Notes: generated from the letters alone by a model not told the origin. A stretch of DNA of 64,000 bases from a virus (IMGVR_UViG_3300028025_000090); one strand, 5' to 3'; shown: positions 1 through 24,978, numbered from the stretch's first letter. Made by a program: numbers and translations.

Positions 1-159
1 GTTCGGTCTTGGCATGGATAACAAGTGCAATTTCCTCTCTGCTCTTAGCAATCCATCGCAACGTGAGAAATTCATCAAGCGGGGAGATTTGGTTCTTAGC
101 AACTGATCCCTACGCTCCCCCCCCCCTCCCTAATTAAAAAACTAGAATAAAATAATCGC

Positions 160-552
160 ATGAACGAATCACGAATGTATTTCTTCGTTATGTATAACCT
201 TTCAGGGATTCAAAAAGGAATCCAAGCAGGTCACGCAGCAATCGAATATCAACTGGAACACGGTAATAAAAAAGTTTATAAGGACTTTGCAAAATATCAC
301 AAGACATTCATCATCTTGGATGGTGGTGGGTCAGAAGATATGAAATCGCGCCTGATTGAATTGGAATATTTCAAAGTTGATCATGCACCATTTTATGAGC
401 CTGATCTGAACAATTCTTTGAGCGCAATCGCTTTTATTGTTCCTGAAAATATCTATGGTATGGATATTAAAGCAATCGATGATCCTATCTTTGTTACCAG
501 AAATGAAGAATTCGCACGGTATCTCAAATCTTTCAAATTAGCAAGTAATTAA
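160..552 (+). CDS. Peptidyl-tRNA hydrolase (Pth2-like) family protein
   Basis: IQAGHAA...KTFIILDGG...FYEPDLNNSLSAIA matches the Pth2-like pattern; follows motif at 137. Confidence 0.6.
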   Translation: MNESRMYFFVMYNLSGIQKGIQAGHAAIEYQLEHGNKKVYKDFAKYHKTFIILDGGGSEDMKSRLIELEYFKVDHAPFYEPDLNNSLSAIAFIVPENIYGMDIKAIDDPIFVTRNEEFARYLKSFKLASN

Positions 553-560
553 AAAATAAA

Positions 561-827
561 ATGAACGTAAAAACAGAACTAAAAAAAATCGGTGGAGAAA
601 AATTTTTAAATGAAAAAGATTTAAAGGATTTTGGGAAAGCAGAGAAAAAAATATATGAATTGATGTGCGATCTTGAATGGCATTCTGCCACTGAAATAAT
701 CAATGTTAGTGGGCAAAGAGAAGGATTGAGAAGACTTCGAAATCTTAGAGATAAAGGATTGATCATAGAAACTAAAAGACAATCTGAAAGCAGAGACTTC
801 TCATACAAAATGTCCTCCAAACTTTAA
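561..827 (+). CDS. Small winged-helix-like DNA-binding protein
   Basis: WHSATEI...GLRRLRNLRDKGLIIE; coupled to upstream ORF. Confidence 0.45.
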   Translation: MNVKTELKKIGGEKFLNEKDLKDFGKAEKKIYELMCDLEWHSATEIINVSGQREGLRRLRNLRDKGLIIETKRQSESRDFSYKMSSKL

Positions 828-865
828 AATGAACTGTAATTAAAAAACTAGAATACACTAAACAC

Positions 866-1360
866 ATGTCCAATACAACCAAAACACAATCGCTGACTGC
901 TGAAGAATCTATTGATCGCATTCTCAATGCTACGGGTCAATTTGTAAAAGTAGTCTGGAAATCGAATCCGACTCCTGCTGCTGCTCACAAGAAAGCAGGT
1001 ATCGTTCTGGAGAAACATACAAGTGCGGTATGCCGTGCTGGTATCAACTTCGCCAATCTCTCATCGGTGCAACAAGGCATCGCAGAAGGTACCCGTGGTG
1101 AAGTGCAGGAACTTCCATGGGGTCAATGGAAAACATTCCCATATATCATTGAGCATAAAGATGCTGAATATGTGCGTCTTTATCCAACTGATTCTCGCTG
1201 TGAGACTATCTATTTTGTCAACTATGTGAAAGTTGATAAGGAAACTTATGCGAGCTATCTGACTCCATCGGAAGCGGCAAAAATGTCCTCTGGTGAAAAA
1301 CCTGAGTGCTTCACGATCAAGCGTGAAAACATTCTCTCCACTGAAGATTTCGGTGGCTAA
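866..1360 (+). CDS. Phage hypothetical protein
   Basis: 164-aa ORF directly after motif; RAGINFANL...LPWGQW...YVRLYP. Confidence 0.8.
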   Translation: MSNTTKTQSLTAEESIDRILNATGQFVKVVWKSNPTPAAAHKKAGIVLEKHTSAVCRAGINFANLSSVQQGIAEGTRGEVQELPWGQWKTFPYIIEHKDAEYVRLYPTDSRCETIYFVNYVKVDKETYASYLTPSEAAKMSSGEKPECFTIKRENILSTEDFGG

Positions 1361-1454
1361 TCTGTAGGTCTTGGCTTATTCCCTCTCTCCCATAGCCAAG
1401 GGGACTCATATCAGAGAGGGAATTACTTTTAAAAAACTAGAATAGACTCTTCAC

Positions 1455-1784
1455 ATGCACGTTGCCGAAGCTATCCAACACCTCAAAAAAGTTCTTCCTT
1501 ACATTCACACCATCGAGCCGATTGGTAAGAATCTATTCACTGTCAAGTATGCAGCGTGGGTGATTGATGAAGAGAATATGACTGCTCGCAAATTGATCAA
1601 ATGGGCGAAAGCACACAGTTCTGAAAACAATCAGAATACCAAAATCAGGAGCATCATCAAAAAGACAGACAAAAAGATGAATCGTAGGGAAACCAAAAAA
1701 GCTATCAAATCCGAAGACTTTGATAAGATTCCTCAACATGGCAAGGTTGCCATGGAAGACTCTGGATTGGCACAAGATTTATGA
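1455..1784 (+). CDS. Hypothetical basic protein
   Basis: ORF directly after motif. Confidence 0.75.
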   Translation: MHVAEAIQHLKKVLPYIHTIEPIGKNLFTVKYAAWVIDEENMTARKLIKWAKAHSSENNQNTKIRSIIKKTDKKMNRRETKKAIKSEDFDKIPQHGKVAMEDSGLAQDL

Positions 1785-1794
1785 AAACAAGATT

Positions 1795-2016
1795 ATGGAC
1801 AATGTAAAACACTACGACGAAATGAGCGATTGGCAACGTGCAAGCGCAATCCATTCTGCTCGTTACATTCTGGAAGATGTGAGCATGGAGAAATTGGCAG
1901 AAATTACTGGTCTTCCCATGGGTGTGATTTCAGCAGCATTCAAAATCATTTTCGTATCGAAAGATGCGGTGGATGAACCGAAGAGAACGACAAGACCAAT
2001 TAGAATTAAAAACTAG
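1795..2016 (+). CDS. Hypothetical protein (start revised from 1720)
   Basis: In-frame ATG after upstream stop; ends RIKN* inside the motif. Confidence 0.7.
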   Translation: MDNVKHYDEMSDWQRASAIHSARYILEDVSMEKLAEITGLPMGVISAAFKIIFVSKDAVDEPKRTTRPIRIKN

Positions 2017-2096
2017 AATACACTTGAGACATGACAGTGAAGAGGAAAGACCTTGGAGAATTTATCAGAAAGACAACCATTTAAAAATGCAACAAT

Positions 2097-2300
2097 ATGA
2101 TCAAATTTAAAATTATATACAGTATTAATAACGTTACTTACGATGAGTATGGTAGGTCAACAGGTAACACATTGGAACATGAATTGAATAAATTTTTATG
2201 TGATAAAAAAATACAGTTCCTTTCTATCAATCAGGTTGCGAGTGGAAGAAGTGATCACCACGTAACAACAACAATCGCGTATAATATAAACGATATTTAA
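2097..2300 (+). CDS. Hypothetical protein
   Basis: Follows degenerate motif TTAAAAATG at about 2080. Confidence 0.65.
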   Translation: MIKFKIIYSINNVTYDEYGRSTGNTLEHELNKFLCDKKIQFLSINQVASGRSDHHVTTTIAYNINDI

Positions 2301-2344
2301 CTTCTTTAAATACGACCATTTAAAAACTAAAATATACTAACGAC

Positions 2345-2566
2345 ATGAATGATCGGGACTACATTCTTAATGGTAATTATCAAAAGCTTGATGCGCTTTA
2401 TGAACGCTTGAAAAAAGCGGAAGATAAGCTTGAAGATGCTGAAAAAAATGTGATACACAAATATATCCATGTGACACCTGACTTGTGGTATGAAATTATT
2501 TCTTCGATTAGCGACAAGGATTTATTGACAAAGGTTGCGAAAGTGAAAACGAACCATATTAGATGA
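2345..2566 (+). CDS. Hypothetical protein
   Basis: ORF directly after motif. Confidence 0.75.
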   Translation: MNDRDYILNGNYQKLDALYERLKKAEDKLEDAEKNVIHKYIHVTPDLWYEIISSISDKDLLTKVAKVKTNHIR

Positions 2567-2625
2567 TCATCGAAGAGAAGAAAAATCATCTTTAACCGAT
2601 TAAAAAACTAGAATACAATTGAGAC

Positions 2626-3120
2626 ATGACAGACGAACAAAAAGAAAATTTGAATACCAAGATCGCAGCAATTCGTGATGAGAATTACAGCAATTATGGA
2701 CATTCCACTGTCTTCGATTATCATAGTGATACGATTGATAGTCGCGATATCCAAGAAAGGATCGACGAACTTCAATCCGAATTTGATTCTCATGTGGATG
2801 AATACGAAGAATCTGATGGTGAAGAAGATGCAGGAGAAGACCTCCTGAATTGGCTAGAAGAGAATGGTGACGAATTCGTGACACTTCTGGAAATCAAAGA
2901 AGAGGTGGAGCAATATACCAGTGAATGGGATAGCGGAGCTTTTATGATTGCTGATAATCACTTCGAATATTATGCGCAAGAATTTGCAGAAGATACAGGT
3001 GCAATTGATAGAAACGCAAAATGGCCTCTAACACATATTGATTGGGATGAAGCAGCAGAAGAATTGAAATGTGATTATTCGGAAGTTACTATTGCTGGTA
3101 AATCATATTGGATTCAATAA
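2626..3120 (+). CDS. Acidic antirestriction (ArdA-like) candidate
   Basis: Very D/E-rich; YAQEFAEDTG...HIDWDEAAEEL resembles the ArdA C-terminal pattern. Confidence 0.5.
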   Translation: MTDEQKENLNTKIAAIRDENYSNYGHSTVFDYHSDTIDSRDIQERIDELQSEFDSHVDEYEESDGEEDAGEDLLNWLEENGDEFVTLLEIKEEVEQYTSEWDSGAFMIADNHFEYYAQEFAEDTGAIDRNAKWPLTHIDWDEAAEELKCDYSEVTIAGKSYWIQ

Positions 3121-3142
3121 AAAACTAGAATACACTTGAGAC

Positions 3143-3901
3143 ATGACAAACAACCTTACTACCATCGCCAAAGCATTCCGTCACAACACTGGCAAGTCTT
3201 TTCTTGACTCTGGTGATCACTATGGTCGTCACTATGAAAAACCTCCCATTACTGATGAGACTCCATTGGTATCCATTGATACATGGAGAACGGAAATCAA
3301 TGCCACAATCGACACTGCTCGCTTTCTGGCTGAAACCTGTGAAGTCGATACTGAACTTCAAAATCAATTTGATAAGTGGGTTGAACTGGAAGAGAATTCT
3401 GAATTGAATTGGTTCGAAGCGGGAGAGACATTTGCTACAGAAGTGTTAGGTCTAACACAATTGGCGAGAGACAATACTTACAATGGTGAGAATGATTTAT
3501 CTCAAACGTATGTTTGGGAAGTCTATGCCGATGAGGATGACGGTGATTGGATTTACAATGACGATGCTCTGATGGTCGTTTATGCTCACACTGGTTGCGA
3601 TGTGCGCGGTGGTTATGCTTATCCTTTGTTCCTACGATGCCAAGGAGACTACGCTATTCCCATGGATTTGGTAGCTGAATTTTTCATCACCGATGCTCGT
3701 TTGAATGGTGAAGACTTGGAAGACGAAGCATGTCGATCATTGGATGAACAATGGCAATGTGGCTATACTTCCAATCCTGCTTACCATATGTCCAAGGACA
3801 TTGAGCGCATCTTCTCATTCACCAAGACAGTGAACACAGTGGTCGTGAAGCTGACAAGCGGTGAGATTGTCAGAATCATGGCAGGAGCAAGAACATATTA
3901 A
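3143..3901 (+). CDS. Acidic phage hypothetical protein
   Basis: 252-aa ORF after motif; FLDSGDHYGRHY...HTGCDVRGGY. Confidence 0.8.
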   Translation: MTNNLTTIAKAFRHNTGKSFLDSGDHYGRHYEKPPITDETPLVSIDTWRTEINATIDTARFLAETCEVDTELQNQFDKWVELEENSELNWFEAGETFATEVLGLTQLARDNTYNGENDLSQTYVWEVYADEDDGDWIYNDDALMVVYAHTGCDVRGGYAYPLFLRCQGDYAIPMDLVAEFFITDARLNGEDLEDEACRSLDEQWQCGYTSNPAYHMSKDIERIFSFTKTVNTVVVKLTSGEIVRIMAGARTY

Positions 3902-3923
3902 AAAACTAGAATACAATTACATT

Positions 3924-4253
3924 ATGGACATTCTACAAATCATTAAAAACCTTAGAGACAATCTCTGGGCTAAGTATGGCAATCCTCTTGCTAACTATAA
4001 AAAGACTCAAGACGATGTTCATATGACTTACTATGTTGGTAAGTTGATGGAAGAGCAAGGACACGAATATGTGATGCCAGCTGCTATCAAAGGCGAGAAC
4101 GAAGATCGTGTTTATTACTCTGAGCGCGCTCTACACGATGCGTTCCTTGCTGGTCGGCTCTTAGCTAGAGCAGACAGGAAAACACTGAAAGCTGAATTGA
4201 TCATAGAACTGAAAGCGCAATTGCGTGATGCGGTTGATGATATCGAACTCTGA
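3924..4253 (+). CDS. Hypothetical protein (start revised from 3861)
   Basis: ATG 6 nt after TACAAT of motif. Confidence 0.75.
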   Translation: MDILQIIKNLRDNLWAKYGNPLANYKKTQDDVHMTYYVGKLMEEQGHEYVMPAAIKGENEDRVYYSERALHDAFLAGRLLARADRKTLKAELIIELKAQLRDAVDDIEL

Positions 4254-4265
4254 TACAATTACAAT

Positions 4266-4436
4266 ATGCAAATAGGAACAATTGGTAATTATTATGGCTC
4301 TTTATATGTGACCACTGATGGTGGAAAATTTTTCTGGAGTATTGAAAATTATAGTGGAAATAATTGGGAAGAAATTCCTGAAAGTCTTTATAATGAGCTT
4401 GTGAAATTTCAAGAATCACTTAAAAAACTAGATTAA
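4266..4436 (+). CDS. Short hypothetical protein (56 aa)
   Basis: Translated by hand MQIGTIGNYYG...LKKLD*; fills gap between cassettes. Confidence 0.65.
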   Translation: MQIGTIGNYYGSLYVTTDGGKFFWSIENYSGNNWEEIPESLYNELVKFQESLKKLD

Positions 4437-4445
4437 AATTTGGAC

Positions 4446-4643
4446 ATGATGAAGATCGTCAAACTCGACATGGAGCATGTCAATAAAGGAACTCCCACAC
4501 ATGAACTTCCTGTTATCTTCAAAGGTAATAAGAAGCAATGTGAAGGTTTACTCAAACGCTATCAATTTGTAGAAGAAAGCAATCTCTATGGAGGTTACTG
4601 GAACGACGAAGAACAAAACAGTTATTTTATTATACCAGCATGA
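4446..4643 (+). CDS. Hypothetical protein
   Basis: ATG 6 nt after TAAAAT of motif. Confidence 0.7.
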   Translation: MMKIVKLDMEHVNKGTPTHELPVIFKGNKKQCEGLLKRYQFVEESNLYGGYWNDEEQNSYFIIPA

Positions 4644-4852
4644 AAAGACTCACTAAAGAAGAAATAGAACGATTCGCAACTGATTCCACAAACAAGGATG
4701 CTGTATGGAATTTCCTTGGCACTGCTCATCACTGTGGCAATTATGTCAATGCGGTTGCCAATCTGTTAGACGATGCGGCATTGTATGGTTGGAACAATTT
4801 GACTGTGATGGCAATCTATGAGGGATTGAAATACGCAAATTTAAAAAACTAG
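4640..4852 (+). CDS. Hypothetical protein
   Basis: ATGA overlap with upstream ORF; ends NLKN* in motif. Confidence 0.7.
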   Translation: MKRLTKEEIERFATDSTNKDAVWNFLGTAHHCGNYVNAVANLLDDAALYGWNNLTVMAIYEGLKYANLKN

Positions 4853-4866
4853 ACTACACTTGGGAC

Positions 4867-5412
4867 ATGACAACGACACGAAAAGTAATCGAATCAATCG
4901 ATCTTGAAAAACACGGGCAAGAAGTCCATGGAAATGAGGATCTTTGTAATGTATTTGGTATCTACGAATACTTATATTTTGATGAACGGATCAAAATGGT
5001 GTTTGTTCGCCCTCATCTTTGCACAGACTCTTGGGTTGGTGTTAGAGCATACTTTCTTGATGGAGAATTCGTAGCAATCTCCTCACAAGTTGGTCGAAAA
5101 TGGGATGAAGAATTTAAATTCGTCTCCAACGAAGCAGCAATGAAAGTTAAAGATTATGTATTGTCTTTCGTAGAACCTCGATACGATATTAGCATTGCTG
5201 ATGATCTGGATGCCGAAATTGATGATTTTTATACCGTTGAGTATGCTGAACAAATTCTACACAAGCATGGTATATATCAAGGAGAACGTGTTGCAATCAA
5301 ACGCAAGCATAGAAATTGGAATGATTTTTACACTGCAACGATTATGGTGAATGTAAAAGAATGCGATGTGGATTGTCGCGAAATTCAATTGGCTTACGTC
5401 GATCTTTCTTGA
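4867..5412 (+). CDS. Phage hypothetical protein
   Basis: 181-aa ORF after motif. Confidence 0.8.
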   Translation: MTTTRKVIESIDLEKHGQEVHGNEDLCNVFGIYEYLYFDERIKMVFVRPHLCTDSWVGVRAYFLDGEFVAISSQVGRKWDEEFKFVSNEAAMKVKDYVLSFVEPRYDISIADDLDAEIDDFYTVEYAEQILHKHGIYQGERVAIKRKHRNWNDFYTATIMVNVKECDVDCREIQLAYVDLS

Positions 5413-5434
5413 AAAACTAGAATACAATTGAGAT

Positions 5435-5581
5435 ATGACAGCGCAAAGAAATCCAATCAATGGTAGTATCACGATCACCACGATTAAATTCAAACGACTG
5501 ATCACAAGGACTTTCTACGATTATACGATGGACGAAGCATTGGAAGAATTCAAAAGCTATCTTAAATCTCTGAAAAAATGA
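5435..5581 (+). CDS. Short hypothetical protein (48 aa)
   Basis: ATG 6 nt after motif hexamer; translated by hand. Confidence 0.6.
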   Translation: MTAQRNPINGSITITTIKFKRLITRTFYDYTMDEALEEFKSYLKSLKK

Positions 5582-5817
5582 AAAACAAATTTACAACCCA
5601 AGAAGTGTGGCGATACGTGGAAGGATTCATGTCTAGCCAATCGAATAGTCAAGAGCTATCCATGAATGAAATCCTTTCCATGCTGAAAAATGCGTTGGCA
5701 TGTATCGAAGATGGTGATGATGGTCTTGTTGCTTATCTTGATCGCATGGAATACTACAGGAATATTCAGTTGGAACAGATGGTAAGAGTATCTTCTTCGA
5801 TAAAAACTAAAGCATAA
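5578..5817 (+). CDS. Hypothetical protein
   Basis: ATGA overlap with upstream ORF. Confidence 0.7.
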   Translation: MKNKFTTQEVWRYVEGFMSSQSNSQELSMNEILSMLKNALACIEDGDDGLVAYLDRMEYYRNIQLEQMVRVSSSIKTKA

Positions 5818-5824
5818 TCGGGAC

Positions 5825-6010
5825 ATGGAAAATTATTCAAAGATTGAAAAACCAATCGAAGCTACTTTATACAAGAAAAACAAACCACCAGTATCTTGTT
5901 GTGTCGTGGGAATCAAATTAACTAGTTTGGGTATTATGTTGGAAGTAATGTCGTCTTATGGATTAGAAATGGTTAATCCTGATGATGTCATTCAGAATTT
6001 TAAAAACTAA
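5825..6010 (+). CDS. Hypothetical protein
   Basis: After motif; ends NFKN*. Confidence 0.7.
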   Translation: MENYSKIEKPIEATLYKKNKPPVSCCVVGIKLTSLGIMLEVMSSYGLEMVNPDDVIQNFKN

Positions 6011-6024
6011 AGCATAATTAGGAT

Positions 6025-6234
6025 ATGATGACATACTCACTGAATCTTGAAAATTGGGGACATTATCCTCAAGCTGAAAATATGTTAGGTCGTTACATCG
6101 AAGAGCAATCCAATGGTCTTTACAACGAAGAACATCGTAAAGTATTTCATAACAAAAAAATTAGCAAGCTGAAACAAGAGAAGATACGCGCATTTTCTGA
6201 TGCATTGCATCGCACTCAATTTGGCGCACCTTAA
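6025..6234 (+). CDS. Hypothetical protein
   Basis: After motif. Confidence 0.7.
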   Translation: MMTYSLNLENWGHYPQAENMLGRYIEEQSNGLYNEEHRKVFHNKKISKLKQEKIRAFSDALHRTQFGAP

Positions 6235-6255
6235 AAACTAGAGCATAATCAACAC

Positions 6256-6474
6256 ATGACAATTAAAAGCGTTCTCATTTGGCCAGAAGAAATTTGTTTG
6301 GGGTGGCATTCATCCGCAGAAAACAAATCAGAAGATACCCACTATTCTCAATCAGCAGCAGAAGCAATCTGTATGATGCTAATCCGCAAAGGATTTGGTT
6401 GTGATGGTAAGGTGTTCCCTCTAAACGCCAGAGTCGAAATCGATGGCGAGGTCGCATGGCAGTGGAAAGATTAA
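6256..6474 (+). CDS. Hypothetical protein
   Basis: After motif. Confidence 0.7.
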   Translation: MTIKSVLIWPEEICLGWHSSAENKSEDTHYSQSAAEAICMMLIRKGFGCDGKVFPLNARVEIDGEVAWQWKD

Positions 6475-6495
6475 AAACTAGAATATACTTAGGAC

Positions 6496-6846
6496 ATGAC
6501 AGGACGGGACATGACAGGAGAACAAAATGAATTCATTAAAAATCATTTCTTCAGAAATTATGATGATCATGGTTGGGATAATATCGCACAGAAGCTTCTC
6601 AAAGATGGGAAATGTATTGTTGCGGGAAATAGCAAATTGTGGCATGGTGGTGTGGGTAACTTTATCAAATGCACCCCTGCTGAAGATGCTATTGGTTGTT
6701 CTTTACTAACATTCGATAAAGAATCTTTTTTACAATCGGTATGGGTCAAAGAGCAAGTTGAATACTATTTGAAAGAATTGACACATCAAATTGATTCTTT
6801 ACGAGATGAGCGATATGCAATCGAGAATCTACTATTAAAAAACTAG
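6496..6846 (+). CDS. Hypothetical protein
   Basis: After motif; ends LLKN*. Confidence 0.75.
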   Translation: MTGRDMTGEQNEFIKNHFFRNYDDHGWDNIAQKLLKDGKCIVAGNSKLWHGGVGNFIKCTPAEDAIGCSLLTFDKESFLQSVWVKEQVEYYLKELTHQIDSLRDERYAIENLLLKN

Positions 6847-6860
6847 AATATACTTGGGAC

Positions 6861-7031: not shown

Positions 7032-7045
7032 ATTAGAATAATAAC

Positions 7046-7342: not shown

Positions 7343-7365
7343 AAACTAGAATACACTAAAAGCAC

Positions 7366-7500: not shown

Positions 7501-7501
7501 T

Positions 7502-7684: not shown

Positions 7685-7698
7685 AATATAATTACATT

Positions 7699-17608: not shown

Positions 17609-17622
17609 AATAAACTGATAAC

Positions 17623-17802: not shown

Positions 17803-17811
17803 AATCCTCCC

Positions 17812-17902: not shown

Positions 17903-17929
17903 AGTTAAAAACTAGCTTAAACTGATACC

Positions 17930-18100: not shown

Positions 18101-18119
18101 AAACTAGAATAAGATTTCA

Positions 18120-18222
18120 ACAGAGCGTCATCTAAATGCTAGGATTCTGGAACTGGGAGATATTCGTCTAAATTAGGACACCCGACATCAGACAATGAGA
18201 ATTTGCAACTCTCCGCTCTACC
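18120..18222 (+). ncRNA. Non-coding cassette, putative structured RNA
   Basis: Between two motifs, no ATG at the expected position; closed by AGAGCG/CGCTCT; contains tRNA D-arm-like CGTCTAAATTAGGACA. Confidence 0.45.
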
Positions 18223-18249
18223 TTTTAAAAACTAGAATAAACTGATACC

Positions 18250-18582
18250 ATGACCAACACCGACCTACAACAACCAAACGATCTATCAGACAAAGGCAAA
18301 CAAGCACATGCTGCAATCGTGGCATTTCTTGAGAAGCACAAGCTCACATACACAGGAGGATGCAAAGCGTTCTATTCCCCCAAAGAGTGGGAGGAAAGGA
18401 AAGAGGACTACGGATGCGATAGTGTGCTTGTCGTGGTGCATGATGGCGGCGATCACGGAGATGCTTTCTCTTATGATCGTGGGAATTACAAGATTCTTGA
18501 TAAGATGTATGAACTTCTGAAACCACTGGGATTTTACAGCGAACAATGCACCTGCTGGTATAGCGCAATCTACCTTGCTTAA
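18250..18582 (+). CDS. Phage hypothetical protein
   Basis: After motif; LVVVHDGGDH...CWYSAIY. Confidence 0.8.
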   Translation: MTNTDLQQPNDLSDKGKQAHAAIVAFLEKHKLTYTGGCKAFYSPKEWEERKEDYGCDSVLVVVHDGGDHGDAFSYDRGNYKILDKMYELLKPLGFYSEQCTCWYSAIYLA

Positions 18583-18606
18583 AAACTAAAATAAAATCAT
18601 AACGTC

Positions 18607-18888
18607 ATGAAAACAATCACATTACGCGAAGCATTTGAAATTCTTGAAAACGCCGCAGCAGTCATCATTGATGACACTGTAACATACCCAACACTTGATG
18701 ATTTAATTGGATCAGATGAAAACGAGTTCCTTCACATTGGCTGGGAGGTTGATGACTTAGGATACACCGCAATTTTTCAAGAAGGGGATAACCAATTCGT
18801 CAAAGTATCAGGATCGAGCCTTTTCATGGTAGATGATAGGGGGGAAGAAACACAAGTTTCTATTTTAATTCCTGCAAATCTTGCTTAA
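18607..18888 (+). CDS. Acidic hypothetical protein
   Basis: After motif. Confidence 0.75.
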   Translation: MKTITLREAFEILENAAAVIIDDTVTYPTLDDLIGSDENEFLHIGWEVDDLGYTAIFQEGDNQFVKVSGSSLFMVDDRGEETQVSILIPANLA

Positions 18889-18909
18889 AAACTAGACTAA
18901 CATTGAGCC

Positions 18910-19107
18910 ATGAAAGTTCGACCACTTGAAAATTACCGCCTGTATGGGACTGCTATTGTCCTTGACAACACGAAAGTTTACTCTGCTTCTCGTGCGGAGA
19001 ATCAGCCCAACTGGAAAGAAAAGGGATTGATTTTTGTGCATGAGTCAGATGATGATGATTGCGTAGGTATTCTTCTCTGTGCAGGGGAATACGAAGTTAA
19101 AAACTAG
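18910..19107 (+). CDS. Hypothetical protein
   Basis: After motif; ends EVKN*. Confidence 0.7.
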   Translation: MKVRPLENYRLYGTAIVLDNTKVYSASRAENQPNWKEKGLIFVHESDDDDCVGILLCAGEYEVKN

Positions 19108-19121
19108 ACTAACATTGAGCC

Positions 19122-19292
19122 ATGACAAAAGAACTACAAGAAAAACTAGAGGCTGCTCGCGCTGCTCGTGCTGCTGCTTATGCTGCTTATGTTGCTGCTC
19201 GCACTGATGCTGATGCTGCTCTTGATGCTTGGGCTGCTGCTGATGCTGCTTATGATGCTGCTCTTGCTGCTGCTGATGCTGTTAAAAACTAG
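19122..19292 (+). CDS. Ala-rich low-complexity protein, copy 1 (56 aa)
   Basis: MTKELQEKLEAARAARAAAYAAY...AVKN*; paralogue of 22721..22924. Confidence 0.7.
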   Translation: MTKELQEKLEAARAARAAAYAAYVAARTDADAALDAWAAADAAYDAALAAADAVKN

Positions 19293-19306
19293 ACTAACAT
19301 TGGGAC

Positions 19307-19465
19307 ATGAACCACCTCGTATTTATTATCCACAAAGGATTCGTAGCATATCGCATGAATGGTCAACAAGGTTCTCACCCTATCGGTGACGACACAGCGC
19401 AAAGCGTCATTGACTATCTCAAGAAAATGATCAAATTCAAAACATTCGAAATCATCAACCATTAA
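19307..19465 (+). CDS. Short hypothetical protein (52 aa)
   Basis: After motif; translated by hand. Confidence 0.6.
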   Translation: MNHLVFIIHKGFVAYRMNGQQGSHPIGDDTAQSVIDYLKKMIKFKTFEIINH

Positions 19466-19486
19466 AAACTAGATTAAACTTTAAAC

Positions 19487-19600
19487 ATGCAGGAATTATT
19501 TATACCATCACTCATTATGTCTTTCATAGCAATCGGTTCACGCCATATCTTGATCTATGCCATCGCAGCAATCATGTGGTATCTGACAATCATCGGGTAA
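19487..19600 (+). CDS. Short membrane peptide (37 aa)
   Basis: After motif; hydrophobic; ends TIIG*. Confidence 0.55.
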   Translation: MQELFIPSLIMSFIAIGSRHILIYAIAAIMWYLTIIG

Positions 19601-19647
19601 TTAAAAACTAGACTAAACTGATAACGTAACCAACACCAACATACAAT

Positions 19648-19869
19648 ATGAAATACATCGTCGCTCGCATTCACAATAACTCACTAGGTAGTGTTATTGA
19701 AGTTTCTTCTCAAGAAGAAGGAAAAGACATCATTCGCGGTATGGCTGAAGAACAATTCAATCGCCCTCTTACGGATGATGAAATTGACCACTTGGAAAAC
19801 AATCTGGAAATTTACAACGAAGAAGATTCTGATAATATCTTTTGTTTCTCACTCGGCATCATCGGGTAA
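19648..19869 (+). CDS. Acidic hypothetical protein
   Basis: Flanked by 52-bp direct repeat; ends GIIG*. Confidence 0.75.
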   Translation: MKYIVARIHNNSLGSVIEVSSQEEGKDIIRGMAEEQFNRPLTDDEIDHLENNLEIYNEEDSDNIFCFSLGIIG

Positions 19870-19920
19870 TTAAAAACTAGAATAGACTGATAACGTAACC
19901 AACACCAACTACTGACCACC

Positions 19921-20163
19921 ATGACAAACCAACAAATCATTACAAAATTCGTAAATGGAGCAACCACTGGCAAGAACTCCAATCGCTCTCTCTTTATTGA
20001 GGGTGATACCATCTACTCATATGGGTATCACTTCCCCCTCGCTCGTCGGAATAGCGATGGCACTTTCTGGGTAAATCCCGACAAGTATAGCGTCACCACC
20101 AGCAAGCAACAAGGCATGGTGCGCTACACAATCACCCGAAACGGGTCAAAATTTTCGGTGTAG
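19921..20163 (+). CDS. Phage hypothetical protein
   Basis: IYSYGYHFPLA...YSVTTSKQQ. Confidence 0.75.
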   Translation: MTNQQIITKFVNGATTGKNSNRSLFIEGDTIYSYGYHFPLARRNSDGTFWVNPDKYSVTTSKQQGMVRYTITRNGSKFSV

Positions 20164-20237
20164 TCATGGCAAGTCCCCTCTCTTTCGTGGTAGGAAGAGA
20201 GGGGCAACCTTTTTAAAAACTAGACTAGAATAACACC

Positions 20238-20546
20238 ATGACGCTAGAAGAACTTACCAAAAAACGAGATGATTTATATGTCAAAATCGCAGATGCTAAA
20301 GGCGATGAGTTGGATGGTTATTTCGATGAAGTGTGGAAAATTGAAGATCAGATCGAAGAGATCGAAAATCCCCCAATCCCCCCCTTGTCGATTGAATCTT
20401 TCGAGAGTGCATACAATGTCGAGCGAGAGTATGAACGTTTTCGGGATGAATATGGTGATGCCGCTGCACTTTATAGCGGGTATTTACGATATCATTACGA
20501 CACCTATTGCTTATTCCACAAGAAAGGCACTCGGTTCAGCTTTTAA
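20238..20546 (+). CDS. Acidic hypothetical protein
   Basis: After motif. Confidence 0.75.
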   Translation: MTLEELTKKRDDLYVKIADAKGDELDGYFDEVWKIEDQIEEIENPPIPPLSIESFESAYNVEREYERFRDEYGDAAALYSGYLRYHYDTYCLFHKKGTRFSF

Positions 20547-20567
20547 AAACTAGACTAAACTGTTACC

Positions 20568-20642
20568 ATGCCTGACATCACTGACCTATCCGACAACGAC
20601 ATCCAAGACCTGATTGACTTCATGCAAGGTGTGACAAAATGA
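20568..20642 (+). CDS. 24-aa peptide
   Basis: After motif; stop supplied by the 17-bp GACAAAATGAC site. Confidence 0.4.
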   Translation: MPDITDLSDNDIQDLIDFMQGVTK

Positions 20643-20692
20643 CGCACCTGAAAAAGCAATCCATTTAAAAACTAGCTTAAACTCTTACTACC

Positions 20693-21016
20693 ATGAAAAA
20701 CAATTGGAAACCAGTAATTAAATCGTTCTTCGCAATCGCTCTCAACCGTGGGTTCACTCTCCATACAGTGGACAATGGCGGGGGAGAGGATGTTCTCATG
20801 AACAGCATCAAAGAAGCTGTGGAAGAAGTCACTGCCACAGATGAGTCTCACGTGGTTCTAAAAGACCCTACTGGCAAGCGTGTGTGGTTCTATCTGGTTC
20901 TCGGCAATGAGCCATATGAAACGATCTGCAACTATTCCGTGCATGATCTAGCAGACAAGGTGCAAGAAGAGTTCTCAGACAAGTGGGAAGACAAACGATG
21001 CCCCCAGATCGCTTAA
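20693..21016 (+). CDS. Phage hypothetical protein
   Basis: After motif; YLVLGNEPYETICNYS. Confidence 0.8.
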   Translation: MKNNWKPVIKSFFAIALNRGFTLHTVDNGGGEDVLMNSIKEAVEEVTATDESHVVLKDPTGKRVWFYLVLGNEPYETICNYSVHDLADKVQEEFSDKWEDKRCPQIA

Positions 21017-21040
21017 AAACTAGACTAAAATCTTACTACC

Positions 21041-21244
21041 ATGACAGAACACACACAAGCAGTTGACAAAGCAATGGCTAAGTATCCAAAGGCAAAACGC
21101 ATCGCGGTGGAGAACTTCACCTTTGGGCAACAAGGGAAGGGGATGCCTTTCGGGGTCGCCATGAATCTGGATGCGGATGCCCGTTGCTATGGGTGGAAGC
21201 CCGACACCGTGAAAGCCATCAAGATGGTCTTGAATGGTCGATAA
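21041..21244 (+). CDS. Hypothetical protein
   Basis: After motif. Confidence 0.75.
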   Translation: MTEHTQAVDKAMAKYPKAKRIAVENFTFGQQGKGMPFGVAMNLDADARCYGWKPDTVKAIKMVLNGR

Positions 21245-21268
21245 AAACTAGACTAAACTGATTGCACC

Positions 21269-21433
21269 ATGACAAACCAATCACGCTACTCAATCCAAGT
21301 CACCTATCCAAGTGGAGTAATTGCCTACATGTCCTTTCGTGGACGAACGGAATGGTGCTATTCACAAGCCCGTCACCATCTGAAAACTTGGGTACATGTT
21401 CACGGGATCACCCCAAAGATTGTTAAAAACTAG
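21269..21433 (+). CDS. Short hypothetical protein (54 aa)
   Basis: After motif; ends IVKN*. Confidence 0.65.
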   Translation: MTNQSRYSIQVTYPSGVIAYMSFRGRTEWCYSQARHHLKTWVHVHGITPKIVKN

Positions 21434-21450
21434 AATAAACTGTTACTACC

Positions 21451-21738
21451 ATGACCACTAAAAAAGAAATCAAATTAAAAGACGGTTCAACGCTCGCCAA
21501 AGGCTTGCCAGTATCATTCATCGCTGGCAAGGATAGCCGTTGCCTAGTGCATTCTCCCGCTCATCCTGAGCCATTGCAAGTGCGCATCACAAGCGCATTC
21601 AAAGCACCTTCCATGGCTTCTCTGGAACGCTGGGGAATGGATGGCGTGTGCAAGACTCCCACGGGTAAGCGTGTCGAGCCTGATGGATATGGCAGCGATG
21701 GTAGCCCATCATGGCTGCTGGTTTTCGGACTCATCTAA
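21451..21738 (+). CDS. Phage hypothetical protein
   Basis: After motif; CKTPTGKRVEPDG...PSWLL. Confidence 0.8.
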   Translation: MTTKKEIKLKDGSTLAKGLPVSFIAGKDSRCLVHSPAHPEPLQVRITSAFKAPSMASLERWGMDGVCKTPTGKRVEPDGYGSDGSPSWLLVFGLI

Positions 21739-21798
21739 AAACTAGGGGGGAGCGCATCCCACACGCTCATTTAAAAACTAGAGTAAGCTGTTACTACC

Positions 21799-21963
21799 AT
21801 GAAATACAACGTAACTAACATTCAATGGGATACTGATGGTATCCCTAACAAATCCCTTCCGACAAGCATCACCATTGAAGTGGAAGATGAAGATGATGTG
21901 ATAGATGATCTTTCCGATGAATATGGCTTCTGCATATTCTCTGCTGACATTGAAGAAGCGTAA
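21799..21963 (+). CDS. Short acidic protein (54 aa)
   Basis: After motif; D/E-rich. Confidence 0.65.
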   Translation: MKYNVTNIQWDTDGIPNKSLPTSITIEVEDEDDVIDDLSDEYGFCIFSADIEEA

Positions 21964-21991
21964 TTAAAAACTAGACTAGACTGTTACTACC

Positions 21992-22264
21992 ATGACAACC
22001 ACACTTATTACTGGCAATACATATCCCGTCAAAGACCAAATCAAAGCTCTGGGAGGGCGATGGAACTCAGTCCGCAAAGGCTGGGAAGTCCCCTCAGATA
22101 ACGCTGGGGAAGCGCAAGCACTGGTCGATGGCGCACCACGCTCCAGCCGTAGCAGTGGCAACCGCTACGTGTCATACGAAGTCCGCACCAGCGGTGGCAC
22201 GTTCTATCGCAATTACAACGGACGTTGCGAGGATGCACCGTGCTGCGGATGCTGCACCTTTTAA
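21992..22264 (+). CDS. Phage hypothetical protein with Cys-rich tail
   Basis: TYPVKDQIKALGGRW...RCEDAPCCGCCTF. Confidence 0.8.
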   Translation: MTTTLITGNTYPVKDQIKALGGRWNSVRKGWEVPSDNAGEAQALVDGAPRSSRSSGNRYVSYEVRTSGGTFYRNYNGRCEDAPCCGCCTF

Positions 22265-22288
22265 AAACTAGACTAGACTGATCGTGTT

Positions 22289-22498
22289 ATGAAAATTCAC
22301 CTCGTTAAAAAAAGACATTGCTGGTTGGAATATCCACTTTTTGCTTTACAAGGTCTTTTCACTATTTTAGATGGTTTGATTATGTTGTTCTCTATGGGTT
22401 TTTTAATTTCCTCGTTTGCTCTCACTATCTGCAAAGTAAGAACTGAATTTCATTTCAAGCGACTGAAAAAGGAAAGGAAATTCCTTTCAAAACATTGA
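22289..22498 (+). CDS. Membrane protein, AT-rich inserted cassette
   Basis: Hydrophobic core; flanked by 23-bp direct repeat. Confidence 0.65.
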   Translation: MKIHLVKKRHCWLEYPLFALQGLFTILDGLIMLFSMGFLISSFALTICKVRTEFHFKRLKKERKFLSKH

Positions 22499-22720
22499 AC
22501 TGCGACTGATACACACTGCTGCACCTTTTAAAAACTAGAATAGACTGATACCATGACCACTAACACTTTATTCACTGTGGGCGGGATGGTTCTCGCCTAC
22601 GCAGTCACGCGAGACGCTGCCATTGCGATCTGCACCTTCGCTCGTCGCCCCGTTCGCTGGGGCGATGAATTGATCGGGGGAGAATACGCCATTTAAAAAC
22701 TAGCTTAAACTGATTACGTT

Positions 22721-22924
22721 ATGAAAAAAGAACTACAAGAAAAACTAGAGGCTGCTGCTTATGCTGCTTGGGCTGATGCTCTTGCTACTTATGATGCTGC
22801 TGATGATGATGCTGCTGATGCTGCTCGTGCTGCTCGTGCCGCTTATGCTGCTTCTCGTGCTGCTTCTCTTGCTGCTCTTGCTGCTGCTCGTGATGCTGCT
22901 GATGCTGCTCTTGCTGCGGTCTAA
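22721..22924 (+). CDS. Ala-rich low-complexity protein, copy 2
   Basis: MKKELQEKLEAAAYAAW...; after motif. Confidence 0.7.
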   Translation: MKKELQEKLEAAAYAAWADALATYDAADDDAADAARAARAAYAASRAASLAALAAARDAADAALAAV

Positions 22925-23086
22925 CAGATCGTGGGCTTTTAAAAACTAGCTTAAACTGATACTACCATGACACTTGATACCAACAAATGCAAGGGACTTC
23001 CGATGGGAGTCCGCAACCGCAAGCGCACAATCCTAACCAAGATCATCCGCTGGTTCGTTTAAAAACTAGACTAAACTGTTACTACC

Positions 23087-23293
23087 ATGAGACTTCAAAC
23101 CATCATCAATCAATTCAGTCTTCTCACGCGCATCTCCACCAGCGGCTGCACCATCGTGGAAGCACCTATCGGCACGGAGTATCGCCGCTATCTGTTTAAC
23201 CTTCAGGACTACGTGGTGACAGGCTGCGCTGGAGATATGGTGTGGCTTAGTCCGCGCCAAGGTTTCGGTGGTGGTGTCCCATATGGCAATTAA
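23087..23293 (+). CDS. Hypothetical protein
   Basis: After motif. Confidence 0.7.
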   Translation: MRLQTIINQFSLLTRISTSGCTIVEAPIGTEYRRYLFNLQDYVVTGCAGDMVWLSPRQGFGGGVPYGN

Positions 23294-23510
23294 AAACTAG
23301 CTTAAACTGTTACTACCATGAAAGTATATATTGCTTATGTCTGTGGCTACGCTTCCATCCGCGAGATGGGAACTGATAGCATTCTCCACACCTTCAATGG
23401 CAAGCGTTCTTTTGAACAGCATCTTGCCGAAGCGAAAAACATTGCCAGTTCCCGCCAGTGGGAACTGGTTTAAAAACTAGCTTAAACTGATTACGCAACC
23501 AATACCAATT

Positions 23511-23747
23511 ATGAGAAAAGGATACGGACCAACACACGTCAGCTACCACCTCCCCCTTGAGAGATTCACCGAGATGGTGAAGAACGGCATCAACATCGCT
23601 CAGGGAGTTGATGACAACAACAAGGTGCTTTACACCGCACTGCCAAAGAATTTATCGGAAAATTCAATTAAAAGAATTTTCGACGATGCGGATTGCGTCT
23701 GCTACCACGGAGGTGTTCAGATGATCATCCCCCGTCATCTTGCTTAA
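23511..23747 (+). CDS. Hypothetical protein
   Basis: After motif with slightly longer leader. Confidence 0.7.
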   Translation: MRKGYGPTHVSYHLPLERFTEMVKNGINIAQGVDDNNKVLYTALPKNLSENSIKRIFDDADCVCYHGGVQMIIPRHLA

Positions 23748-23807
23748 AGACTAGGGGGGAGCGCATCCTACACGCTCATTTAAAAACTAGAGTAAACTGT
23801 TACTACC

Positions 23808-24020
23808 ATGATTACTGTATTGACCATCGAAGACCTTAAAGCAATCGTCGCCAAAACATCCCCGCGCCTTAGTGCGCTCGGAATCGTGTACGCAATCATC
23901 AATGATGATACTGATGAAGAAGTCACAAGCCGATATCCCACAATTGAAGAAGCGTGGGATGAGTTCAAAAAAACTTGGGTTGTCGGGACGTTCACCGTTC
24001 TCACAATCTATAGATCCTGA
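23808..24020 (+). CDS. Hypothetical protein
   Basis: After motif. Confidence 0.7.
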   Translation: MITVLTIEDLKAIVAKTSPRLSALGIVYAIINDDTDEEVTSRYPTIEEAWDEFKKTWVVGTFTVLTIYRS

Positions 24021-24049
24021 TTAAAAAACTAGACTAAACTGTTACTACC

Positions 24050-24289
24050 ATGAATACCATGACACACACCGCCACCACCGCCGACAAGAACTTCATCGTT
24101 GCCTTCCACGACTGGCAAGGCAATCGCCATACAGTGCAAGTCAAAGCTTCCGATAAAACGTCCGCATACGATGCGGCGTGGAAATGGATTGAGGAAAATC
24201 GCGGCGACCAACTCGAAATTGAGTTTGCGGGTGTTAAAGAGATTTTCTATCTCAAGGACATCATCGCAGAAGCACTGGCTGCAAATTAA
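24050..24289 (+). CDS. Hypothetical protein
   Basis: After motif. Confidence 0.75.
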   Translation: MNTMTHTATTADKNFIVAFHDWQGNRHTVQVKASDKTSAYDAAWKWIEENRGDQLEIEFAGVKEIFYLKDIIAEALAAN

Positions 24290-24309
24290 AAAACTAGAGT
24301 AAACTAGCT

Positions 24310-24405
24310 CTGTCAACCCCTTCCAACTATCGCGAAGGGTCAACCTGAACCATCAACTACCCCGTCTCTCCCGACTACAGGGAGGGGCGGGGCAACCAAT
24401 CTGCT
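24310..24405 (+). ncRNA. Non-coding cassette with two GC-rich hairpins
   Basis: Between two motifs, no ATG; CCCTTC/GAAGGG and CCCCGTCTCTCCC/GGGAGGGGCGGGG stems. Confidence 0.5.
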
Positions 24406-24435
24406 TTTAAAAAACTAGAGTAGACTGCTACTACC

Positions 24436-24654
24436 ATGAATTACATCACTCCAGAATACGACTTCACAGGACGCTGCACTCCATCGGAGGAAGCACAACG
24501 CAAGGAAGCGCAAGCGTTCGCCGCCTATCGCGAAAAGGAAGAAGCTAAAAAATTCAAGGTGCGCGATGCCTTCGGGTTCTCCCGCTACGCCACCTTGGAA
24601 GAAGCGCAAGCGTTCGCCGCCACCCTCAAGAATGCAGAGATCATCATCCTATAA
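24436..24654 (+). CDS. Hypothetical protein with internal EAQAFAA duplication
   Basis: After motif; 21-bp GAAGCGCAAGCGTTCGCCGCC occurs twice. Confidence 0.7.
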   Translation: MNYITPEYDFTGRCTPSEEAQRKEAQAFAAYREKEEAKKFKVRDAFGFSRYATLEEAQAFAATLKNAEIIIL

Positions 24655-24683
24655 TTAAAAAACTAGACTAAACTCTTACTACC

Positions 24684-24929
24684 ATGACCACCATGAACAC
24701 CACCTGCCTTATCAATCGTGCCGTTCTCGACGGATCATCAGGGTATCAAACTCAAGAAGTGATTGCCGAAGTCAATCATCTCGGACATCTTGTAGAGATT
24801 GTCTTCGAGTCGGGATGCTTCACTCGACTTCTGCCTGATGAAGTTTATGACCTTATTGATGACGGTGAAGTTCACTTCACTGATGCGAACCACGGTGGTT
24901 CGCGAGTCATCACACTCGGTTGGATCTAA
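24684..24929 (+). CDS. Hypothetical protein (last cassette)
   Basis: After motif. Confidence 0.75.
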   Translation: MTTMNTTCLINRAVLDGSSGYQTQEVIAEVNHLGHLVEIVFESGCFTRLLPDEVYDLIDDGEVHFTDANHGGSRVITLGWI

Positions 24930-24941
24930 CATCTAACATCT

Positions 24942-24978
24942 AACGCCCACGGTCTAACAGATCGTGGGCGTTTTTTTT
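24942..24978 (+). terminator. Intrinsic terminator closing the array
   Basis: AACGCCCACG-GTCT-AAC-AGAT-CGTGGGCGTT followed by T-run; preceded by (ATCTAAC)3 at 24924-24944. Confidence 0.85.

Follow-up and report, generated by a model that had tools for sequence, protein, structure and literature searches.

Integron cassettes are promoterless and expressed from one Pc promoter, and are characterized by attC hairpins and the IntI integrase. Leaderless transcripts are known for lambda cI, for middle and late genes of the Thermus phages phiYS40 and P23-45, and for actinobacterial genes. T4 late promoters, TATAAATA, are gp55-dependent, and the late mRNAs have leaders with Shine-Dalgarno sequences. 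Leaderless genes have been described in mycobacteria (PMC4633059); the T4 middle promoters and the PmSLs of phage nt-1 consist of a MotA box plus a -10 element (PMC4122927); and the promoter-early stem-loops (PeSLs) have been reported for RB49/phi1, T4/PST and KVP40/nt-1 (PMC2839356, PMC4122927). Here we analyse a locus of an uncultured lake phage for which the best joint explanation, one that we consider probable, is that the leaderless box promoters of a T4-like phage are also sites of cassette recombination.

The window, as we call the whole stretch of 64,000 nt that was analysed (IMGVR_UViG_3300028025_000090), is that of a distant T4-like phage, judging from its predicted proteins. These include a gp23-like capsid protein with about 32% identity to cyanophage gp23, a gp20-like portal, an adaptor and a ribonucleotide reductase, along with a tRNA cluster; the capsid and portal proteins are only 28-33% identical to those of known T4-like phages, and the genome of this distant relative of T4 would be roughly 200 kb. 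Megablast against 50,697 phage records gave no match for the array and a single tRNA as the sole match for the rest of the window. The exact motif had 7 single matches in 185,579 species genomes, about the chance expectation, so that no host was indicated, and no paper with the motif string was found in the phage literature. The lineage is nevertheless widespread among lake phages, with more than 60 IMG/VR contigs.

The full pattern of the repeat, TTAAAAACTA-R-NN-TAnnnT, occurs in the whole window 75 times on the plus strand, from 135 to 24656, and once on the minus strand, at 27798; with up to one mismatch allowed, the 10-mer is found 93 times vs. 13.3 +/- 3.7 in shuffles, and the co-oriented array reported in the first-pass annotation is thus real. 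A 19-base promoter, in near-identical repeats of 19-28 bp, recurs once per roughly 330 bp over 25 kb; the motif is not palindromic and has no hairpin. Its box, AAAAACTA, is invariant, flanked by TT and G, and lies at about -25 or -23 to -16, 3 bp before a -10 hexamer of the sigma-70-type form TAnAMT. Across the family set (658 distinct copies from about 120 related loci) the hexamer is conserved at the A and T positions typical of a -10 element, and in the complete relative G002 its first base often varies, with the A and T kept. The annotation had placed an ATG 5-9 nt after the hexamer; a close ATG is indeed usual, but the spacing is quantised, at 6 nt in 44 of the 75 copies and 9 nt in 20 (61% and 17%, respectively, family-wide), with 7-8 nt in three copies, 14 nt in one and no nearby ATG in seven. 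When the gap between box and hexamer is 4 nt instead of 3, the 6-nt distance from hexamer to ATG is unchanged. A gap of 6 or 9 nt leaves no room for a Shine-Dalgarno sequence, and no use of one is seen anywhere in the window or at the late genes; nothing is conserved upstream of the motif, from -30 to -1 in the window or from -40 to -1 in the 658 copies, and there is therefore no -35 element. On both of these absences the annotation was correct. The sequence TTGAC[AT] is present at a spacer of exactly 16 bp in 19 of the 658 copies, vs. 0.3 expected (about 60-fold enrichment) and 0-3 copies at other spacings. An overlapping upstream hexamer, TARNNT, which starts in the box, was weighed as the actual -10 and rejected: in G002 its last T is often lost while A and T persist in the second hexamer, and it is the second hexamer that the ATG spacing tracks.

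Features of the cassette array and its surroundings, with positions in the window
Feature	Position	Strand	Details
Box-promoter cassette array, 75 co-oriented	135..24990	+	69 promoter-headed ORFs of at least 20 aa, 1 tRNA
Sub-block A	135..16930	+	mostly GAA/AAT-TAYAAT/TACACT, ATG 6 nt after hexamer, GC about 0.34-0.39
Sub-block B	16931..24990	+	Gnn-TAAACT/TAGACT, GC up to 0.47; often a 9-nt ...YACC spacer before ATG, predicted 3-nt leader
Representative promoter	11110..11137	+	box, GAA, TACAAT, 6 nt, ATG of 123-aa ORF; stop codon of upstream ORF sits in box
Composite promoter and tRNA-Met	9901..10012	+	TTGACA at 16-bp spacer, box, TACACT; drives tRNA-Met (9940-10012), which begins 11 nt after hexamer
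Homing-endonuclease-like gene	8929..9927	-	within array, opposite strand; own TAAATA-N5-ATG late-type start signal at 9857
tRNA-like element	8833..8924	+	adjoins endonuclease gene; Rfam tRNA model 35 bits, not called by ARAGORN
Seven promoter-headed paralogues starting MTIA(K/Q)QLKI	7699..16203	+	tandem or dispersed duplicates
ORF-less cassette with hairpin	24312..24410	+	13-bp GC-rich hairpin then T run, z = -4.2
Array end	24946..25212	.	terminator hairpin, 4 box copies, then G runs and A/T tracts
Sole window copy outside array	27770..27807	-	composite TTGACA + box + TAAGAT; 9 nt before ATG of 186-aa virion-protein-like gene (27210-27770)

The layout of the array is given in the table. Neighbouring promoters are more alike than distant ones, the observed value being reached in 0 of 2000 shuffles, and the seven MTIA(K/Q)QLKI paralogues flank a block whose order differs in the relative G007. 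Some cassettes had been taken as non-coding or empty; four of them, at 14819, 19601, 19870 and 23470, have 27-50-nt CA-rich leaders and then ORFs of 59-80 aa, and only two short ones without an ORF stand, at 18097-18224 and 24287-24407. The former, folded as 18122-18226, does no better than shuffles, and an Rfam search of 1-30000 found tRNAs only; the strong hairpin of the latter (24360-24407) is, from its sequence, likely an internal terminator. A similar hairpin directly upstream of promoter 20213 was seen by eye only. Terminator-like sites in 1-20000 show no excess (15 vs. 10.4 expected, few of them on the plus strand), so that long read-through transcripts probably coexist with short ones. 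At the array end, the box copies at 24993-, 25013+, 25046- and 25052+ lack a usable -10 and include an inverted pair, and the core of this region is conserved in G002. The earlier statement that no recombinase is visible in the window overlooks the homing-endonuclease-like gene on the minus strand, and the claim of a single copy outside the array holds for the window (on the minus strand) but not for the relatives, in which the motif heads larger genes across about 60 kb. G002 carries about 105 co-oriented box-plus-hexamer copies over 66 kb, between 7.5 and 73.6 kb, heading a denV-like gene and a RecA/KaiC-like ATPase gene in addition to small ORFs. The early region, about 60 kb long, runs one way, and the 25-kb array forms its dense, hyperplastic end.

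The cassette genes are real, as their divergence from a relative indicates, because the differences concentrate at the third codon position (196, vs. 75 at the first and 51 at the second) and 58% of the changed codons are synonymous. A Pfam scan of 19 plus-strand array proteins gave none above the cut-off; six of the first nine array proteins had PHROG matches, almost all of them to families without a known function, and about half of the proteins from the cassettes lack a homologue in four relatives. These scans lend no support to the library of host-takeover/anti-defence genes that the first-pass annotation proposed. The array represents a natural set of about 70 self-contained expression units for small genes, nearly all of unknown function.

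Most likely, from its sequence features, the repeat is the main non-late promoter of this phage family. It would be transcribed by host RNA polymerase, with the box AAAAACTA taking the place of the -35 element, and we infer that the box is read by the holoenzyme itself or by a putative phage factor. On sequence geometry only, the predicted transcription start lies 7 nt past the hexamer, so that messages of the 6-nt class would begin with the A of the ATG and those of the 9-nt class 3 nt ahead of it. Transcription starts are usually marked by a pyrimidine followed by a purine, and such a pair stands 7 nt past the hexamer here: a pyrimidine precedes the predicted start in 81 of 81 window copies (94% family-wide) and the start base is a purine in 78 of 81 (95% family-wide), a pattern that holds in the 9-nt class too. 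With a start at the AUG, or 3 nt before it, the messages would be leaderless and a Shine-Dalgarno sequence unneeded; and since a leaderless message needs a 5'-terminal AUG, almost every gene must have its own promoter. The late genes have the same leaderless geometry, with TAAATA-N5-ATG found 17 times vs. 0-4 at other spacings, independently of the array motif, which explains why nearly every gene needs a promoter of its own; a search of the literature on leaderless T4-like late promoters found nothing relevant. Genes without their own promoter overlap the upstream stop codon (ATGA), which suggests that their translation is coupled. Genes abut one another, which leaves the promoter as the entire intergenic space, also supplying the stop codon of the upstream gene; an element that holds this stop codon is therefore the gene boundary.

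When the window is aligned with its close relative G007, the cassettes that both carry match over their full length at 83-99% identity. The relative lacks about 30 of the 78 cassettes in the window, and the comparison yields 10 indels that run exactly from motif to motif, 6 replacements and 1 block move. All eight of the indel junctions inspected lie within the motif, at varying points, and such differing crossover points within the repeat indicate homology-driven exchange. A gene for a RecA/UvsX-type recombinase is present in the complete relatives; the integrase family PF00589 had no match in G002, G003, G007 and G009, and no integrase was found among the selected window ORFs scanned against Pfam or PHROGs. 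The near-identical repeats of 19-28 bp would offer short stretches of homology to the recombination system of the phage itself, leading to the exact gain, loss, duplication or replacement of single-gene cassettes. The exactness of the junctions could partly reflect selection, because only gene-sparing indels survive and the motif is the sole intergenic DNA. Divergence also changes along the shared cassettes at motifs in some blocks and not in others, so that ordinary homologous exchange takes place inside genes as well. The proposal in the first-pass annotation that one element is promoter, gene boundary and recombination point is supported in all three parts, by the -10 hexamer with its box, by the upstream stop codon within and by the inspected junctions, and cassette order, expected there to differ between relatives, is not identical. 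A single unit of 19-28 bp would combine stop codon, promoter, transcription start, translation start and crossover site.

It seems to us very improbable that the repeat instead acts on RNA, as a processing site or a Shine-Dalgarno-independent initiation signal on a few long polycistronic RNAs, even though the lack of terminator excess, the abutting genes with stop codons inside the motif, the A-rich character of the motif and the lack of Shine-Dalgarno sequences in the window would all fit. In relatives, moreover, only 0-1 nt separate the hexamer from the start of three tRNA genes, like an RNA end made there, and 5 nt separate it from that of a fourth; a start 7 nt downstream would fall inside those tRNAs, which must therefore come from upstream read-through, or else the start is not fixed. 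Against action on RNA, the hexamer is conserved like a -10 element, the -35 sequence is enriched at one exact spacer, the pyrimidine-purine pair stands at the predicted start, tRNA genes, which are not translated, also lie behind the motif at variable distances, and the late genes join an element like the T4 late promoter to the same leaderless geometry. The same three tRNAs, and a contiguous block of about 19 bp without a -35, as in promoters of single-subunit polymerases, would suit a phage-encoded RNA polymerase or a novel sigma-like factor starting directly after the hexamer, which would yield 6-9-nt leaders and tRNAs with mature 5' ends. This we regard as very improbable, since purines are not preferred directly after the hexamer (A15, C10, G25, T31 in the window), the -35 enrichment favours the sigma-70 holoenzyme, and two complete relatives have no gene for a T7-type or multisubunit RNA polymerase, the T7-type negative being the weaker in that no control genome carries that family. 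The one weak sigma region-2-like match per genome is a gp55-like ORF, probably the late factor, and no second sigma factor was found in the complete relatives.

Least probable of all, in our judgement, is an att-like site of a dedicated, integron-like site-specific recombination system, with promoter activity secondary. Close relatives do differ by cassette indels that run exactly from one motif to another, and some box copies lack a -10, including the inverted pair at the array end, as such a site might predict; but crossover points vary by junction, the repeat has no hairpin, each cassette has a promoter-like -10 at a fixed distance from its ATG, and the relatives (two complete and two partial) show no tyrosine or serine recombinase, the RecA/UvsX type being present. 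Repeated promoters are, besides, known to shuffle genes in T4-type phages (PMC2839356, PMC4122927).

If the repeats are leaderless box promoters that double as recombination sites, one lead to what reads the box is a conserved, family-restricted basic protein of 84 aa, encoded with its own canonical TTGACA promoter in several relatives and its own terminator in all relatives checked. It has no sequence match in Pfam or PDB, and its model (44 sequences, pLDDT 75) no significant Foldseek match in PDB; it may be an immediate-early factor. That the box binds a phage protein replacing -35 recognition beside the -10, with early and late genes nearly all leaderless, is a speculative and rather unlikely proposition. 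If true, it would mean a mode of polymerase redirection other than MotA/AsiA and an almost fully leaderless programme, possibly favouring phage messages over host mRNAs. What reads a box abutting the -10, and whether a leaderless programme aids the takeover of translation, can now be tested. The lineage is unusual in having a main promoter with an invariant spacer element and no -35, and in genes apparently expressed almost wholly from leaderless mRNAs, whatever the norm of the host.

The array shares with integrons a one-way arrangement of single-gene cassettes parted by a repeated element. The integron-like logic suggested earlier does not extend further: each cassette has its own promoter in place of Pc-driven expression, there are no attC-type imperfect inverted repeats bounding promoterless cassettes, and a RecA/UvsX-type recombinase is found in the complete relatives instead of an IntI integrase or other tyrosine or serine recombinase. 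As in known leaderless transcripts, the start codon follows the -10 by 6-7 nt and a ribosome-binding site is absent, and the genes fit the usual description of leaderless genes (-10 6-8 nt before the start codon, no Shine-Dalgarno); unlike those, the arrangement here takes in nearly all genes of a T4-like phage and comes together with a fixed upstream box and with the shuffling of cassettes. The late genes of the source phage bear TAAATA, as in T4 late promoters, and leaderless placement is common to both promoter classes, but the late element is separate from the array motif. The T4 middle promoters and PmSLs likewise combine a TAnnnT-type -10 with a phage-specific upstream box replacing the -35, and they too are numerous in a T4-like phage's early region. 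They differ in that their MotA box is TGCTT, centred at -30, whereas the array box is AAAAACTA, 3 bp from the -10; 19 of 658 array-type boxes coexist with a TTGACA -35, and the complete relatives G002 and G003 gave no match to MotA or AsiA (PF09114, PF09010).

The comparison with PeSLs, already drawn in the first-pass annotation, is apt. Both are repeated early-promoter elements between small, variable ORFs, clustered in hyperplastic regions; where close relatives differ by an insertion, deletion or replacement, the junctions in either system coincide with the repeats, and the repeat probably acts as short recombination homology. PeSL cassettes are further characterized by the excision of mini-circles between tandem elements. 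A PeSL, however, has a -35 plus a -10, a stem-loop directly upstream of the promoter, and a Shine-Dalgarno sequence with a start codon at the 3' end, whereas the array element, only 19-28 bp long, has the -10 only (TTGAC[AT] in 19 of 658), no stem-loop/terminator part (hairpins being few, e.g. 24360-24407) and the start codon alone as part of the unit, and its copies are packed far more densely, one per roughly 330 bp over 25 kb. Promoter-based gene shuffling is thus already known in T4-type phages, and the array extends it to a very compact form.

The repeat that heads the cassettes of the array is an invariant box, TTAAAAACTA, followed by R, two free positions and a hexamer, TAnnnT. Matches to the box with no more than one mismatch number 93 in the window against 13.3 +/- 3.7 in shuffled sequence, and 82 of them lie on the plus strand before 24700. 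The first-pass annotation had reported about 80 promoter-like copies and a single outside copy on the minus strand, and both observations stand: the complete pattern, box-R-NN-TAnnnT, has 75 plus-strand copies between 135 and 24656 and, on the minus strand of the window, a single one at 27798. The position matrix of the window copies gives the consensus T-T-A5-C-T-A-G-A-n-T-A-n-A-(A/C)-T and holds no information at -30 to -1 before the motif, in agreement with the earlier remark that a conserved -35 is absent. An ATG follows the hexamer at 6 nt in 44 window copies, at 9 nt in 20, at 7-8 nt in three and at 14 nt in one; seven copies have no nearby ATG. Stop codons of upstream ORFs fall within the motif, either as TAA at positions 1-4 or as TAG/TAA arising from CTA-R, and the 69 promoter-headed ORFs of at least 20 aa account for 73% of the array length. 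Several genes that have no motif overlap the stop codon of the preceding gene (ATGA), which would fit coupled translation. Substitutions relative to the partial relative G007 number 196 at codon position 3, 75 at position 1 and 51 at position 2, with 58% of the changed codons synonymous, so the array genes are real. In-frame copies of AAAAACTA that have no hexamer occur in the coding sequence of two paralogous small proteins rich in alanine repeats (19122-19292 and 22721-22924); these are chance coding copies of the box.

Across the family, represented by 658 distinct motif copies from about 120 related loci, there is no conservation from -40 to -1, and the hexamer retains the A and T that define the sigma-70 -10 element; in the complete relative G002 the first base of the hexamer varies (CATAAT, GATACT) with the A and T kept. 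TTGAC[AT] stands before the hexamer at a spacer of exactly 16 bp in 19 of the 658 copies, where 0.3 would be expected, and in 0-3 copies at other spacings. Box-less canonical promoters, TTGACA-N16-TAnnnT, are also present in the phage, for example at 36613 on the minus strand; canonical promoters at 36613, 38330 and 50110, all on the minus strand, lie 5-6 nt before an ATG, and a near-canonical TTGACA-N16-TTAAAT is found at 27852, ahead of the tRNA cluster. Where the gap between box and hexamer widens from 3 to 4 nt, as it does in three window copies, the ATG still lies 6 nt from the hexamer, which links the position of the start codon to the hexamer. In the complete relatives, searches for a T7-type or multisubunit RNA polymerase, AsiA and MotA were negative, and the one sigma-like match is a weak region-2-like ORF, probably the counterpart of gp55. 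From the sequence we conclude that the hexamer would be used as the -10 by the host holoenzyme, with the box (about -25 to -16) substituting for the -35 and being read either by the polymerase itself or by a phage protein.

A possible immediate-early regulator is a conserved, basic protein of about 80 aa that occurs in this phage family only (63 clusters, all hypothetical) and has homologues in G002, G003, G004, G005 and G007. In several relatives its gene is preceded by a canonical TTGACA promoter of its own, whose spacer contains a near-box, AAAAACAA; no clear canonical promoter was seen at the G002 copy, and every copy checked has its own hairpin terminator. The protein gave no Pfam, PDB or fold match.

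Of 81 window copies, 78 have a purine 7 nt after the hexamer (95% family-wide) and all 81 have a pyrimidine just before that position (94% family-wide). In the 6-nt class the purine coincides with the A of the ATG; in the 9-nt class (...YACC-ATG) it lies 3 nt upstream of the ATG. As had been noted earlier, no Shine-Dalgarno is visible, here at any gene inspected. A leaderless message would require an AUG at its 5' end, and this would be the reason why nearly every gene has a promoter of its own and the motif forms the entire intergenic space. Independently of the array, late genes supply 17 cases of TAAATA-N5-ATG in the window (16 past 25 kb, on both strands) against 0-4 for other spacings, a placement that would put the T4-type late start on the ATG too, so that the late genes also look leaderless. 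Four exception cassettes, three of which are paralogues, depart from the leaderless layout with CA-rich leaders of 27-50 nt; folding of one, at 14844-14880, showed it to be unstructured, and these leaders may be Shine-Dalgarno-independent translation enhancers.

The motif extends well beyond the window array in two relatives. In G002 the co-oriented box-plus-hexamer copies number about 105 and span 7.5 to 73.6 kb. Up to 42 kb they are thinly spread, heading a denV-like gene and a RecA/KaiC-like ATPase gene and lying near RNA ligase genes, and from 42 to 67.5 kb they are dense; the region closes with the same terminator and G-run structure as the window array. The partial relative G009 overlaps window positions 1-4063, is 96-99% identical to them for most of the overlap, and adds 33 copies in the 35 kb that lie left of the window. 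The one-way early region thus measures about 60 kb, and the 25-kb array forms its dense end. Its non-coding end is conserved (window 24946-25212; L105:7420-7690 in G002) and holds a terminator, a box with G runs in place of the -10, a conserved TGCCATGGCTAAA stretch and long A/T tracts. Such a promoter-like site leading into a G-rich stretch beside an easily melted region could be an R-loop-type replication origin. At three sites (window 21735-21770 and 23744-23779; G002 65581) a normal promoter is preceded, 36 nt upstream, by a box that runs into G6 and a conserved AGCGCATCC(C/T)ACACGCTCA stretch; this may represent either a promoter copy in decay or an element in its own right.

Genes in the right half of the window specify a major capsid protein of the gp23 type (about 32% identical to cyanophage gp23), a gp20-like portal and a head-tail adaptor, together with ribonucleotide reductase, ThyX, an endolysin, a CCA-adding enzyme and nine tRNAs. 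An exact search of IMG/VR with one promoter variant returned 96 stretches on more than 60 contigs, including two complete genomes with terminal repeats, G002 (207 kb) and G003 (198 kb), and no close cultured phage was found; this is therefore a distinct, widespread and uncultured lineage of T4-like phages. The nearest of the records compared, G001 (a 28.8-kb IMG/VR contig sharing 29% of 31-mers), spans the late region and stops right at the array border; the repetitive array may be a place where assemblies often break. The phage tRNAs found at 27852-29438 and in the arrays of relatives all read A- or U-ending codons (anticodons such as UUU, UUC, UGU, UGG, UGC, UUG, UAA, UAU and UCU), which suggests a host of higher GC content than the phage.

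Some tRNA genes of the relatives are fitted exactly between two motif copies, the CCA end overlapping the next motif. Three begin 0-1 nt after the hexamer and one begins 5 nt after it. With a start 7 nt past the hexamer these tRNAs would be truncated, and they may be made by read-through from the preceding promoter or from a different start. The homing-endonuclease-like gene of the window runs against the array and has its own TAAATA-N5-ATG signal at 9857; its position between a tRNA-like element and tRNA-Met resembles the layout of the seg genes in the T4 tRNA region. A Pfam scan of 19 plus-strand array proteins gave no match above the cut-off, so a host-takeover or anti-defence role for the array genes is only a guess.

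Coordinates of features in the window array and in related phages
Feature	Location	Strand	Remarks
~80-aa basic protein gene	L121:7540-7791 in G009, ~23 kb left of window start	-	
CA-rich leaders, variants of ACCAACACCAAC	window 14844-14880, 19620-19650, 19890-19920, 23490-23510		array cassettes
tRNA-like element	window 8833-8924	+	adjoins homing-endonuclease-like gene
Homing-endonuclease-like gene	window 8929-9927	-	PHROG HNH/homing endonuclease families; weak Vsr-type nuclease domain match
tRNA-Met cassette	window 9940-10012	+	other side of homing-endonuclease-like gene
tRNAs between motif copies	L104:19626-19835 (G002); L108:2250-2324; L114:1397-1727		start 0-1 nt after hexamer; tRNAs abutting it in G002 at L104:19643 and L104:19738

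The first-pass annotation had proposed that the motif is also a recombination substrate and had named cassette order in related genomes as a check. When the window array and that of G007 (40.8 kb) were cut at the motifs and compared cassette by cassette, shared cassettes aligned from first to last base at 83-99% identity, and about 30 of the 78 window cassettes had no G007 counterpart. Order and content differ by 10 exact motif-to-motif indels, six replacements and one block move (13496-15070 against 10021-13163, with paralogous genes on the flanks). At all eight indel junctions inspected the switch falls within the motif, as proposed: on its left side the relative matches the flank of one copy, on its right side that of the following copy, with one motif separating them, and the switch point inside the repeat varies among the eight. 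Selection could account for part of this precision, because the motif is the sole non-coding DNA. Changes in divergence along shared blocks are not confined to motifs, and general recombination therefore acts inside genes as well. Neighbouring promoter flavours are more alike than distant ones (none of 2000 order shuffles reached the observed value), which fits local duplication or conversion. The integron-like logic suggested earlier does not hold: tyrosine and serine recombinases are absent from the two complete and two partial relatives, a recombinase of the RecA/UvsX type is present in relatives, and the array is not an integron.

The closest known systems occur in T4-type phages: PeSLs and PmSLs, repeated stem-loop-bearing promoters of the early or middle class that sit at indel and replacement junctions in hyperplastic regions, and for which mini-circle excision has been shown (PMC2839356, PMC4122927). 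The element described here acts alike in evolution. It differs from them in having no stem-loop, -35 or Shine-Dalgarno, and in adding a spacer box and a predicted leaderless fusion of promoter to start codon.
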